A stretch of DNA of 64,000 nt from an uncultured Candidatus Saccharibacteria bacterium (GCA_964416765.1 CAYQEU010000001.1:212480-276479); one strand, 5' to 3'. Counted from the first letter of the stretch, positions 55,953-64,000 are shown. The notes: generated by a model from the letters alone, not told the origin. Program-made: numbers and translations.

Positions 55953-56594
55953 TTATTTATTTACGACCCATTCAGCTGGTAGATAACCAGAAAGACCTAC
56001 TTTATCTTTATCAACGTCGTTAACTCCAGCGAGAATCCTCACTCTTCGGTACGGAAAACTTTTATCAATGAGCTGTACTTTTGATCCGTTGCCTACACAA
56101 AATGCACCGGGAATTTCTAAAAGGCCTAGAAAATCTTTGGCTGCAAGAGCCTTGCCGATAGCTTCAGCGTCATCTTTAGTTTTACCAAGACAGATATTTT
56201 GATCAGTGCCGTCGTATCCCGGAATACGAAGATAACCTTGATCACCAACTTTCATACTTTCCCAATCCCCACCGGTTGCAGCGGTAGTAGCAGGTTGATT
56301 ACCATTTTGAATTTCTGCGGACTTTTGTCGGGCACTATCTTTTGAGCTGCTGGCTATACCAATAACAATTGGCAGTCCAAACAATAAAAGTAGTGCGGTT
56401 AATACTTTATGCCTGCTGAACCAGTTTCTTAAATCACTCTGACACTGGGGACACTTCTTGGCCGTGGCATTGATTTCTGATTTGCAATGCGGACACACCT
56501 TAGTTGCTTGCATTCTTGTAGCATGGTCTTTCCGGCAAACGGATAAACAAAAGGGGCTACCCGCTTGCCTGACAGCCCCTTTCGGAACTGCCAA
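55953..56594 (-). CDS. Zn-ribbon membrane protein (N-terminal CPHC..CPQC, one TM, extracytoplasmic domain)
   Basis: CPHCKSEINATAKKCPQCQ then a TM (VLTALLLLFGLPIVIGIA). The start is ambiguous between M1 at 56594 and M28 at 56513. Confidence 0.45.
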   Translation of the reverse strand: MAVPKGAVRQAGSPFCLSVCRKDHATRMQATKVCPHCKSEINATAKKCPQCQSDLRNWFSRHKVLTALLLLFGLPIVIGIASSSKDSARQKSAEIQNGNQPATTAATGGDWESMKVGDQGYLRIPGYDGTDQNICLGKTKDDAEAIGKALAAKDFLGLLEIPGAFCVGNGSKVQLIDKSFPYRRVRILAGVNDVDKDKVGLSGYLPAEWVVNK

Positions 56595-57057
56595 CCAACC
56601 TTTCGGCTGGTGACCATGCTACTGGAAGCAAGACGGATAGCCGCCTTCATGTAGCATGGTTCTTGCGCCATACCTCGCATTTCTACGAGGGTTAGGACAT
56701 TAATTTGTTAAGCTAATTATACGATATTTTGACGATTCCGTATAATCCCGTCCATCCTATACTATTCCCCTGATTTTGCGAAGTCCCAAGTTATCAACAA
56801 GTTTTCTTGCGTTTCCAAAGGCTTTATGGTAATTTTTAAATACAAATTAATACATGCGAGGTTCTGCCCGGTTTCGCTCAGATTTTCCCGGAAGTAGTAC
56901 GCACCTATCACTGCGGTACTTCCAGACTCAGGATTCATAGACCCATGTTGGGGTACAACACCTTTTGGTGTCGTACTTCCACGTCCGTGGCCTCAAAGAA
57001 GTAACCGACCCAAAGGGGTCGGATTTTTGTTAATAGGCCGCGAGAAAGAAAAAATAT

Positions 57058-60415: not shown

Positions 60416-61723
60416 ATGCGCCGCAAGCCCAAAACAATGGAATTAGTACCAACCCAAACCAAATATTGCCTGTATGCTCGTAAGAGTACTGAGGACTCTT
60501 CCGAAAAACAGGCTTTGTCCATAGATTCTCAGGTCAAAGAAATGCTGGCTATTGCCGAGCGCGAAAATCTAGATGTCATAGACATTCGCCGCGAAGCCCA
60601 TTCGGCTAAGGATTCAGGACAGCGGCCAGTATTCCGCGAGCTATTATCGGATATTCGAAGCGGCAGGTTTAATGGTATTTTGACGTGGGCGCCGGATCGA
60701 CTGAGCCGTAATGCCGGAGACTTAGGGTCGGTGGTCGATTTAATGGATGAGAAGCTGCTAGTGGAAATAAAGACGTACGGCCAAACATTTAAGAATTCAC
60801 CGAACGAAAAGTTTTTACTGATGATTCTTTGCAGTCAAGCGAAACTAGAAAACGATAACAAGAGTATTAATGTAAAAAGAGGTTTGAGGACAAGATGCGA
60901 AATGGGATTATGGCCAGCCCCTGCGCCCATGGGTTACTTAAACGAAAAGAAAGTTGATAGAAAAGGCTATTTGATAATTGATCAAGAGCGTGCGCCAATT
61001 ATCAAACAAATGTTTGAAAAAGTAGCTTACGAAAAATGGAGCGGCCGCAAACTTTATCATTGGCTGAAGTTCGACCTTAATTTTAAAACTCCATTAGGCA
61101 ATAAAGGGTTAACCTTAAGCAATATTTACATAATTCTTCAAAATACTTTTTATTATGGCGATTTTGAGTTTCCCAGAAAAAGCGGTATCTGGTACAAAGG
61201 CAAGCACGAACCAATAATTAGTAAGGAACTGTTTGGCTTAGTTCAAGAACAAGTCAGGACGAATGTTATAAGGGTGGAAGACAAAGAATTTGCTTTTACA
61301 AAACTAATGACCTGCGGTTTATGCGGTTCGGGTGTTTCAGCTGATGAGAAATTCAAGAAGCAGAAAAACGGAAATATTCACCGCTATATCTATTACGGCT
61401 GCACGAAATCCCGAGACAAACACTGCAAAAGTGGGTATATTTCTGAAGATGATTTAATCACACAACTAGAAAAACTAGTGGATAAAGTTGACTTCAGCGA
61501 AGCAGATATTAAAGAGAAAATAAAGCATGAGGTAACGCGCTTCAAAAAGTTCCAGCAGTATGTAATTGGCGCAAAAGAAAAAATAGTTATCGGGAATATT
61601 GATATTCAAAACTATACGAAGTTTATTTTTAGGGAGGGTAGCAATACCGAGAAACGTGAACTGCTTACTTGTTTTAAAAACGATATACAAATTAATAGCA
61701 AGGAGGTTATCTTAGTCCAATAA
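60416..61723 (+). CDS. large serine recombinase (integrase/resolvase family)
   Basis: Catalytic motif YARKSTEDS..Q, recombinase domain, and Zn-ribbon CGLCGSG..YYGC. 435 aa. Confidence 0.8.
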   Translation: MRRKPKTMELVPTQTKYCLYARKSTEDSSEKQALSIDSQVKEMLAIAERENLDVIDIRREAHSAKDSGQRPVFRELLSDIRSGRFNGILTWAPDRLSRNAGDLGSVVDLMDEKLLVEIKTYGQTFKNSPNEKFLLMILCSQAKLENDNKSINVKRGLRTRCEMGLWPAPAPMGYLNEKKVDRKGYLIIDQERAPIIKQMFEKVAYEKWSGRKLYHWLKFDLNFKTPLGNKGLTLSNIYIILQNTFYYGDFEFPRKSGIWYKGKHEPIISKELFGLVQEQVRTNVIRVEDKEFAFTKLMTCGLCGSGVSADEKFKKQKNGNIHRYIYYGCTKSRDKHCKSGYISEDDLITQLEKLVDKVDFSEADIKEKIKHEVTRFKKFQQYVIGAKEKIVIGNIDIQNYTKFIFREGSNTEKRELLTCFKNDIQINSKEVILVQ

Positions 61724-61755: not shown

Positions 61756-62664
61756 TCATTCAATTTTTCTACCATCTCTCACCCCCAAAATATGGGGCCA
61801 CTCCATCCCGTCTTTTATCGTCCAATATAAGGATGGGTGACCGTTTAAATGTTTAAACCTTAATTCGCAGTCGGTAAGCGTTTTAGTCCTTCTGCGAATA
61901 AGGTAAGCATTAAGCCATCGCTTAGCAGCCGGCATTGACTGAAAACTTTTAATAGATTTAAGTCTCGCTTGTAAATGGGAATTATAGAGCTCGACTAAGT
62001 TTGTATCTCTCGGACAGTCTTTAATGGTTAGGTACTGAAACAGAATATCTCTGCGATCGTTAATTTCAAAAATTATATCCCTGACTTTTTGGTCGTCTTT
62101 GCCATAGCGATCAAGCACATACCGCATGGCACCAGTAATTGCCATATCCGTCTGCGCTTCCAAGAATACCCTATTCCTAAGGCTTGCAAAGAATTGATGA
62201 TAGGTGTCTTCCGTCCTTACCCGAAGAAAACGTCTTAGATTTTCTAAAAAGTGATTTTGGCAAAGTTGTATCTTAGCAAACGGATACGCCTTGGCCAGTG
62301 CTGACTTAACCGTCATTCGATCATCGCACACCACCACCTTGAGTGGATAACCACACTTCTTCAACTGTCGAAATATTTCAGTGAACGCTAAATGACTTTC
62401 AGACTTTGCCAACACCCCGACCGGGATATCATGGGTAAGGTAATCAATACCATAAATGAACGGTATCTTCTGGTTTTGATCTGCGACCTTCACAAACTTA
62501 CCGTCTAACACCAAAATACCAGAGAACTTTCGTGGGTCACAAAACTGTTCAGTTAGGGCAGTATTGTCAGGTAAGGTATTGAGTTGAGATACAACGTGAA
62601 CATACGCATCGGACCCTGATATATTATACTCGTCACCCAGTTTTCTAAAAGGTACACCATCCAC
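61756..62664 (-). mobile_element. IS256/Mutator-like DDE transposase, C-terminal ~300 aa. The N-terminal ~130 aa appears to sit in another frame at 62704-63090, so the gene is probably frameshifted or a pseudogene
   Basis: D (LVLDGKF), D (VVCDDRM) and the signature C-terminal TNLVELYNSHLQARLKSIKSF (TNxxExxN). The catalytic region begins near residue 50 of this ORF. Confidence 0.45.
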
Positions 62665-63184
62665 GTATTGGGATCCACAAAATCGGTGGTCTGGCGCCGT
62701 GATTTATCGAGAATGACTTATGACATGACTTACAAAAATATCGCTTCCGGCTTCCTTCGCTGCCGCGCTTAATAGTTCGCTTGCTACCACAGAGCAAGCA
62801 TTTTGGGTTCTTTTTTTTAACATTGCTGAGGCTAACTTAATTATTAAATTTCCCATAATTATAACAAAAATCCGGTCGAGTGTCGATGCTTTCCGCATTG
62901 CATTGTGTTGAAGATAACGTTCACGTTTGAGTGCTTGGACCGGCAATCGGCTTGACAACCAGTAAGGTGCGGAAAAAATTTCATCTAAGAAAGTATTATA
63001 TTTTGTTAGCAATTTCAAAAAGTAGAAATTAGATACATACAGTAAACACAATATGTTTAAGGTATATATCTGAATTTTACAAACGATCACTAGTCAAACC
63101 ACGATTTTGTCGCTCATCTGTGAGCGGCTTTTTAATTTGACGCACGAAAATTTAAACGGAAAGCGGATCCGTCCGTCCATGACA

Positions 63185-63220: not shown

Positions 63221-63525
63221 TAGAAAAGCCTAAACTCTGCAATTTTGCAGAGCATGGCATTATCCTCAGCAACAGAGACGGCTCTCCGACCGCCACTCGT
63301 TGCTGAGGTGCCCAATCGCAAGGTTGGGAGACGGTACCCGAAAGGGTGCCGCCGGTAGGTAGGGGGGCCCTTTTTGAATCCCTGCCTACCAAAATAACCT
63401 CAGCAACAACCAACGAAATAAAAAGTAAACATGGCCGCAAAGGGCTCCCCCTCCATTTTCGGTCAATACTGCTTATAAAACAAAAGGTTGCTACTGCTGA
63501 GACTGCTGCTCAGCAGTTTTATTTT
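63221..63525 (+). ncRNA. candidate structured non-coding RNA of ~300 nt, unidentified family
   Basis: Sits between the promoter and a terminator (ctgctgag-actgctg-ctcagcag + TTTTATTTT, 63494-63525). Contains a 5' palindrome (63235-63252), mutually exclusive helices built from three CCTCAGCAAC or GTTGCTGAGG elements, a GAAA-tetraloop hairpin whose G.U pair only works on the + strand (63333-63350), and GC-rich stems. Confidence 0.45.
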
Positions 63526-64000
63526 GTCTAGCCAATTCTGCGTTCTCTTTCCAAACACTATACTTTTCCACCAAAGTTTGTCGGAGCTCATACGTATTAC
63601 CGTGGCTTAGAAGCCCTAAATATGACTGCAAAGTTTCATTTCTTGGATTCTGCTTCACTCTACGGAAAGCTCTTCGTTCTGTACTTTTCCGTACGATTCT
63701 ATGAGTGGGAAAATGAACCCAGCCTAGAAAATCAACACCGGAAGCGAGAGGTTTAATAAATAACTTATCCGGATGTAAAGACAGATGCAAGTTTGTTTCT
63801 AAATAAGTAGAAATGTTGGGAATCAAATTTTCTAAATAAGAGCGATCGTGATGGAATATTACAAAATCATCTGCATAGCGGATACAATGCTGGACTTTCA
63901 GTTTCCGCTTCAAAAACTGATCGAATTCATTCATGTAAACATTCACTAAAAGCTGCGAGGTCAGGTTACCAAGCGGCAAACCTATATTGGGCCTGCCTTG
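63491..64000 (-). CDS. reverse transcriptase, partial (N-terminus beyond window end), with diversity-generating-retroelement-type motifs
   Basis: The frame stays open to the window edge: ..QGRPNIGLPLGNLTSQLLVNVYMNEFD (RT motif 4 with SQ rather than the SP seen in group II and retron RTs) then IRYADDFVIF (motif 5 YxDD). The ORF track starts at 63979 only because the frame runs off the window. Confidence 0.8.
   Translation of the reverse strand, partial: QGRPNIGLPLGNLTSQLLVNVYMNEFDQFLKRKLKVQHCIRYADDFVIFHHDRSYLENLIPNISTYLETNLHLSLHPDKLFIKPLASGVDFLGWVHFPTHRIVRKSTERRAFRRVKQNPRNETLQSYLGLLSHGNTYELRQTLVEKYSVWKENAELARQNKTAEQQSQQ

Follow-up and report, generated by a model that had tools for sequence, protein, structure and literature searches.

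The reverse transcriptase (RT) fragment that runs off the right edge of the window, the 64,000-nt stretch of DNA analyzed here, is very probably the 3′ half of the RT gene of a complete, chromosomal Patescibacteria (CPR) diversity-generating retroelement (DGR) of architecture B3, for which a homing cycle and a template repeat (TR) RNA are proposed. A DGR uses error-prone copying to rewrite the tip of a single protein; DGRs have been catalogued in the thousands and CPR genomes are rich in them.

The only part of the element within the window is the C-terminal 169 codons of the RT gene and its stop codon (63491..64000, minus strand; stop codon at 63491-63493). The translation of this interval is stop-free up to the terminal codon (QGRPNIGLPLGNLTSQLLVNVYMNEFDQFLKRKLKVQHCIRYADDFVIFHHD...AEQQSQQ*), and both peptides quoted in the sequence-only reading, which had proposed a truncated RT with LGNLTSQ and YADD at this edge, were found in the translated fragment (...IGLPLGNLTSQLLVNVYMNEFD... 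and ...IRYADDFVIF...). The LGNLTSQ of RT motif 4 (63953..63973, minus strand) corresponds to residues 185-191 of the 344-aa RT and has the form of the DGR signature, [I/L/V]GxxxSQ; the catalytic YADD box of motif 5 is at 63866..63877 on the same strand. The fragment matched Pfam RVT_1 above the cut-off (E 4.9e-10) and was matched by 3406 database proteins at E<=1e-3, the best of which were 60-73% identical, and it is therefore not a chance open reading frame.

The right end of the window had no exact match in viral, genome or metagenome contigs. The sequence beyond it was instead reached via the serine recombinase protein encoded at window positions 60416-61723, and is that of the Logan contig SRR11845619_14970 (93,315 bp), from which a locus named L001 was fetched. 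L001 and the window are identical over their 13,585-nt overlap, beyond which L001 extends for another 4,591 nt (~4.6 kb) to the end of the contig. Window coordinates equal L001 coordinates plus 50415, and coordinates in the extension are given in square brackets. No repeat of the TR/variable repeat (VR) type was found inside the 64-kb window; the TR/VR pair, the target gene and the Avd gene, which had been expected just beyond it, are all on the 4.6-kb extension. The N-terminal 175 codons of the RT gene also lie past the right edge (L001 13586-14110 [64001-64525], minus strand), and complete an intact open reading frame of 344 codons (L001 14110..13076, minus strand).

Comparison of the full RT with solved structures gave 8ub7_A (328 aa), which we take to be the Bordetella phage enzyme bRT, as the best match, with an E value of 1.1e-43 over residues 5-307. 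The best group II intron RT reached E 4.4e-22 and a chain described as a ‘retron-type’ RT 6.9e-22. The SQ of motif 4 aligns between the two proteins (IGIPIGSLTSQ in 8ub7_A, IGLPLGNLTSQ here), and L-P-L-G-N-x-T-S-Q is invariant in 16 clade members. Judged by motif 4, the Y-x-DD box and the scores against solved chains, the RT is of the DGR lineage, as had been suggested from the fragment; those scores likewise give no sign of the clustering with group II or retron RTs that had been named as evidence to the contrary.

That the fragment might come from a group II intron RT/maturase, whether in an intron or free-standing, is suggested by its best NCBIfam match (TIGR04416, group_II_RT_mat, E 2.2e-18) and by the annotation of some homologs as ‘reverse transcriptase/maturase family protein’. 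However, the TIGR04416 match amounts to 66.5 bits against a cut-off of 300, and the group II RTs in the PDB match 20 orders of magnitude less well than the DGR RT. Enzymes such as GsI-IIC (6ar1) and 7uim have in common with the RT described here the RVT_1 fingers and palm and an N-terminal extension that aligns, but their E values range from 4e-22 to 5e-17 and their motif 4 contains SP where SQ is found here. The RT, at only 344 aa, also lacks any added maturase/endonuclease region, neither the window nor the extension yielded a group II intron RNA family, and the presence of Avd, TR and VR is at odds with such an origin, which we regard as vanishingly improbable.

Read 5′ to 3′ on the minus strand, the gene order of the element is target(VR) - TR - (avd, opposite strand) - RT. 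The TR (131 nt; L001 14528-14658 [64943-65073], minus strand) and the VR (132 nt; L001 14981-15112 [65396-65527], minus strand; target codons 657-701 of 709) are 0.4-1.0 kb upstream of the RT start, whereas the absence of such a pair within ~5 kb had been put forward as an argument against a DGR. The near-repeat with adenine-specific mismatches that had been predicted was also found: in the 132-column alignment of the 131-nt TR with the 132-nt VR, 20/20 substitutions are at TR adenines, and there is one additional 1-nt indel. As adenines make up 40/131 of the TR, the chance of 20/20 is ~0.305^20 = 5e-11. The TR frame is intact and includes 8 AAC codons and 1 AAT codon, with codon positions 1 and 2 accounting for 35 of the 40 adenines. 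Up to 22 codons could vary in principle, giving ~7e20 possible proteins.

Avd is found in most DGRs, though not all. The avd gene of this element (131-133 aa; L001 14105/14111-14506 [64520/64526-64921], plus strand) was identified by a match to bAvd (PF22296, E 9.5e-16, above the cut-off); its product had no sequence match among solved Avd chains. Such an accessory gene had been anticipated beyond the window, but not its location on the strand opposite the RT gene, which is normal for CPR DGRs. The avd stop codon is inside the loop of the stem that follows the TR. At the other end, the ATG codons of avd and RT are back to back on opposite strands in the palindrome-like sequence ATGCATATG, 0 or -6 nt apart (L001 14105-14113 [64520-64528], both strands), an arrangement established from L001 and from the tblastn coordinates of relatives. 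The promoter of each gene must therefore be inside the other gene or farther off, and expression of the RT may depend on read-through of the post-TR stem-loop or on a promoter within avd.

GTDB genome contigs were scanned with an RT alignment, and 80 loci were recovered, mostly from Patescibacteria MAGs, with RT identities of 55-70%; phage DGR RTs are at most 39% identical to the RT described here. An avd gene was detectable in 75/80 loci, in every case (75/75) immediately upstream of the RT gene on the opposite strand. In 60/80, a TR/VR pair was present in which 80% or more of the differences were adenine-specific, with the TR between the avd 3′ end and the target. Some relatives vary: L046 has two VRs for a single TR, L071 has a second TR/VR pair in the locus, and in L006, L008, L013, L019 and L032 the VR is downstream of the RT gene on the opposite strand.

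Wu et al. (2018) defined architecture B3, ‘TR-(avd)-RT’, as a TR upstream of a reverse-strand avd that is followed by the RT gene (PMC5758913), and this is the order found here. Roux et al. (2021) described a cellular DGR clade 2 that is restricted to Patescibacteria (PMC8144416). The element is a typical complete CPR DGR of architecture B3, an already described class. It resembles other CPR DGRs (B3; clade 2) in its gene order and inverted avd and in its PcfJ-like class of target, and nothing essential differs; the frameshifted VR allele and the position of the element in a low-GC island, beside TerS, TerL, a serine integrase and candidate defense genes, are features of this locus.

The signals at the end of the VR were also sought. 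In DGRs, the IMH at the VR end differs from the IMH* at the TR end, and a GC-rich inverted repeat lies downstream of the VR. The final 18 nt common to TR and VR (GTTCGCGTTCCGTTTTCG) are identical and A-free. The VR ends in CGCAAG and the TR in CGAAAG, and in most relatives inspected a CGCAAG at the VR end likewise stands against CGAAAG (or CGAAAC) at the TR end. As this difference is common to most relatives, the twentieth substitution looks like a fixed IMH/IMH* difference and not a product of mutagenesis. The 3′ UTR of the target contains degenerate 8-nt CTTTG repeats after the VR (L001 14922-14950 [65337-65365]) and a 5-bp GC hairpin, CCCCCGAAGGGGG (L001 14909-14921 [65324-65336]), which is 57 nt after the VR and does not adjoin it. 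Over 60 loci, CTTTG occurs 2.1 times per 110 nt after VRs compared with a background of 0.19 (~11-fold), and was absent after TRs. The repeats are mostly 8 or 16 nt apart and are then followed by a GC hairpin; they are found at the equivalent place in L002-L081. Speculatively, the repeats may be what designates the VR as the acceptor in place of the TR.

The VR forms the 3′ end of a 709-aa target open reading frame (L001 14952-17081 [65367-67496], minus strand), as had been expected of the target. Its protein cluster has a single member; its family, with 227 matches at 45-68% identity, consists of ~700-aa proteins, several of which are annotated ‘PcfJ domain-containing’ and come from Patescibacteria. 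PcfJ-like targets are category g of Wu et al. (PMC5758913). In the AlphaFold model of the target (pLDDT 85.8), the N-terminus adopts a GNAT-like fold (Foldseek E 1e-5) and the C-terminus forms a beta-alpha-alpha-beta domain; the model also contains helical regions and the PcfJ-like domain (Pfam E 1.4e-7). A fold search with the whole model returned GNAT matches only, and the C-terminal domain was therefore modelled separately, using a relative with an intact tail in place of this allele (pLDDT 87.6). C-type lectin or lectin-like chains made up 9 of the 12 best PDB matches of this domain, at weak scores (E 0.025, TM 0.46-0.49), and a search of a viral fold library with it gave nothing significant (E 0.18). 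Of the predictions made from the window, the C-type-lectin fold is thus the one that is weakly supported; it is likely for the VR domain, as judged from the model of a relative.

One extra base in the VR relative to the TR produces a +1 frameshift opposite an A-rich stretch of the TR (...AACGATAAA...). The assembled target follows the family frame up to LWLD and then reads GCMGAPGLPVESRLRVRVPFSQEKLKNLVPC*, so that its last 44 codons are outside the conserved frame. The conserved tail (...VWARPGYQWNLDYEFAFRFRKKNSKT*, the C-terminal 26 residues) sits in the +1 frame, where it matches the family consensus W-A-x-P...F-V-F-R-x-R-K. The VR evidence is that of one assembled consensus allele, and the frameshift may have arisen during error-prone homing or may be an artefact of deriving a consensus from a mixed population; it could also represent a dead allele or a decaying target. 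This copy of the target is probably without a working tip until the next round of homing rewrites the VR.

The displacement of the ...W-x-x-P...F-x-F-R-x-R-K tail from its frame, together with the adjoining IS256/Mutator-type transposase and phage-like remnants, raises the prospect that the cassette is a real DGR that no longer works on its target, that is, a relic with a decaying VR. This is unlikely. The RT (344 aa), Avd and the TR frame are all intact, and the substitutions in the VR are all adenine-specific, with no ordinary drift. The indel faces A-rich TR sequence, a setting in which DGR RTs are known to make indels, and such cases are shown by Wu et al. (PMC5758913, Figure 4 legend). 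Indels were found in 4 of 60 TR/VR pairs, two of them not multiples of three, and shifted tails occur in at least two other family members (P0150 and P0159). Homing from the intact TR would, moreover, repair the frame.

The RNA around the TR was examined as well. An extended -10-like box, TGGTATAAT, is upstream of the TR (L001 14884-14892 [65299-65307], minus strand) and is a putative promoter for a TR RNA, as suggested by its sequence; it was not called in a scan for two-hexamer promoters. It is followed by a structured leader of ~215 nt 5′ of the TR (L001 14659-14877 [65074-65292], minus strand), which contains an A-rich clamp strand (L001 14758-14768 [65173-65183]). Directly 3′ of the TR there is a 10-nt U-rich linker (L001 14517-14527 [64932-64942]) and then a terminator-like 9-bp stem-loop with the U-tract UUUUUCUUUU (L001 14494-14517 [64909-64932], minus strand). 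A search of Rfam, including its RT-associated motifs, returned no match in the leader, TR or spacer at E<=5.

The conservation of the leader was assessed by aligning the promoter-to-terminator regions of 59 loci. RNAalifold, applied to the 29 closer sequences, folded the leader into 49 pairs in six helical segments: a hairpin P1, a helix P2 that encloses P2a, and a helix P3 that encloses P3a and P4. A loop resembling GGCUAMGGCUU is found on both P1 and P2a. The cells of these columns were paired in 93.9% of cases, compared with 37-46% when the partners were slid by 1-3 columns, and the covariation score was 0.636 against 0.11-0.17 for the slid partners, with compensatory changes in 43 pairs. 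None of 500 shuffles reached the observed values.

The A-rich tract separating P2 from P3 can pair with the U-rich linker 3′ of the TR. The resulting duplex was paired in 78% of cases (49-56% when slid) and had a covariation score of 0.342 (0.11-0.15 when slid); it constitutes weaker evidence than the leader helices because of the low sequence complexity of this region. For the stem-loop after the linker, RNAalifold recovered only 5 pairs, the variable stems having been misaligned by MAFFT. When the loci were read sequence by sequence, every one had a GC stem of 6-9 bp after the linker, differing in sequence, and then a U-run.

Handa et al. found, in 207/278 Avd-type DGRs, CPR included, both an ‘Avd-binding’ stem-loop just after the TR and a duplex joining sequences upstream and downstream of the TR, the ‘cPRT Stop’; upstream of the TR, only 40 nt were examined (10.1101/2023.10.23.563531). 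The post-TR stem-loop and the clamp duplex described here fit that picture, whereas the 5′ leader and a duplex strand located ~100 nt before the TR are beyond the region that it covered. Conservation across the clade suggests that the leader, clamp duplex and stem-loop are probably RT-Avd docking and stop elements, whose BPP-1 counterparts are mostly located 3′ of the TR.

The element can be compared directly with that of the phage BPP-1 (mtd-avd-TR-brt; 8ub7 and following). The RTs are homologous over their full length, including the SQ motif, with YADD here at the position of YMDD in bRT. Both elements also have an Avd and adenine-only differences, and both carry the VR at the 3′ end of their target. 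In each, moreover, a stem-loop immediately follows the TR, and sequences on the two sides of the TR form a duplex. Unlike BPP-1, which has a 140-nt 3′ spacer, the element described here has its conserved RNA structure 5′ of the TR; the sequence 3′ of its stem-loop is antisense avd, and the upstream strand of its clamp precedes the TR by ~100 nt, two helices being inserted. Its nearest GC hairpin is 57 nt from the VR end, with none directly adjoining, and its target is a cytoplasmic-looking GNAT/PcfJ protein where that of BPP-1 is a phage tail fiber. Finally, the BPP-1 template is within an avd-TR-RT operon RNA, in contrast to the self-contained TR RNA proposed here. We suggest tentatively, as a possibility rather than an expectation, that the TR of CPR B3 elements is a self-contained ~400-nt non-coding RNA with its own promoter and 3′ stem-loop and a permuted 5′ docking scaffold, belonging to a family absent from Rfam.

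By the DGR mechanism established for BPP-1, and with the layout of the TR RNA taken from its conservation in the clade, the element would operate as follows. The TR would be transcribed as its own RNA of ~400 nt from the extended -10 promoter, with the structured leader first, the TR clamped by the long-range A-rich/U-rich duplex, and the stem-loop and U-tract last. RT-Avd would then reverse transcribe this RNA with random insertion opposite adenines. Replacement of the VR by the cDNA would recode up to 22 codons, the source of the ~7e20 protein variants, in the C-terminal, probably lectin-like, binding domain of the target; the same homing step, from the intact TR, would restore the VR frame.

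The GC content falls from ~50% to 36-44% at ~46 kb in the window and stays there to the end of the contig. The 50%-GC part of the window encodes DnaX, RecJ, PBPs, Ddl and DinB; Patescibacteria are the sole organisms named among the relatives of this DnaX, which fits a CPR host. The low-GC part encodes RmuC, a 1539-aa helicase-nuclease (PDC-S37, Hhe-like), a ParB-like DNA methyltransferase, TerS, TerL, the serine integrase, the IS256/Mutator-type transposase, the DGR and a DUF4268 protein (PDC-S11). None of the island proteins scanned was a capsid or tail protein, and the region is therefore considered a mobile/defense island and not a recognizable complete prophage; it looks like such an island or a satellite-like remnant. 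The transposase open reading frame (302 aa, PF00872; window 61756-62797, minus strand) is preceded by a 50-aa zinc-finger-like open reading frame in another frame, and the gene could be frameshifted or subject to programmed frameshifting.

Two full-length copies of the LOOT RNA (Rfam RF03000) are present in the island, LOOT A at window 56571-56698 (minus strand) and LOOT B at 63227-63350 (plus strand). Their scores, 59.9 and 58.2 bits, exceed the gathering score of 46.4. The copies are inverted with respect to each other and flank a 6.5-kb phage-like module that contains the ParB-methyltransferase, TerS, TerL, serine integrase and transposase. Each copy is preceded at ~20 nt by a GGTATAAT box and followed by a GC hairpin and T-run, and from these sequences the two look like independently transcribed small RNAs; the LOOT RNA is thereby placed in a Patescibacteria-like genome. 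A zinc-ribbon protein with a likely membrane segment is encoded directly downstream of LOOT A (window 55953-56594, minus strand); as its listed open reading frame overlaps LOOT A, its true start is probably an internal ATG (MQATKVCPHC...). LOOT B is convergent with the RT gene, 140 nt from the RT stop codon. Between them, a 9-bp terminator-like hairpin over the last RT codons (AEQQSQQ*; window 63493..63517, L001 13078-13102, plus strand), followed by TTTATTTTGT on the plus strand, may mark the end of the RT transcript.

The proximity of a structured RNA to the RT gene, and of candidate defense genes to both (DUF4268, PADLOC PDC-S11, E 3e-124; the 1539-aa helicase, PDC-S37, E 4.7e-67), could be read as the signature of a retron or a defense RT (DRT/UG/Abi) in a defense island, with LOOT as the non-coding RNA partner, and weak matches to the Drt2, Drt3a and retron St85 models were indeed obtained. 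These matches are far under their cut-offs, however (44 vs 390, 40 vs 200 and 31 vs 235 bits), and in PADLOC the generic RT model scored best, above all UG/DRT models. Searches for retron RNA found nothing, and neither a retron nor a DRT would account for an adenine-specific TR/VR pair. LOOT was also rejected as a part of the DGR, because it was not found in 11 related DGR loci, its second copy, 6.7 kb away, has no adjoining RT, and each copy comes with a promoter-like box and a terminator-like hairpin of its own. A retron or defense RT is accordingly a very improbable identity for the fragment.

The RT gene thus belongs to a DGR, and as a DGR the locus adds little, its architecture and target class having already been described. 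It is nevertheless a clean, complete example on a long contig, and it shows a CPR DGR beside TerS, TerL, an integrase and candidate defense genes; according to Wu et al., almost nothing was known of the phage association of CPR DGRs (PMC5758913). The main residual interest of the locus is in its frameshifted VR allele and the RNA architecture of B3 elements. A frameshifted VR beside an intact TR is an example of the price of error-prone homing and of a lesion that renewed homing from the TR could repair. From the locus and ~60 relatives, a well-supported secondary structure is obtained for the RNA that surrounds the TR in B3 elements, and this structure makes it testable whether the RT-Avd-RNA mechanism of the Bordetella phage extends to the inverted-avd architecture.
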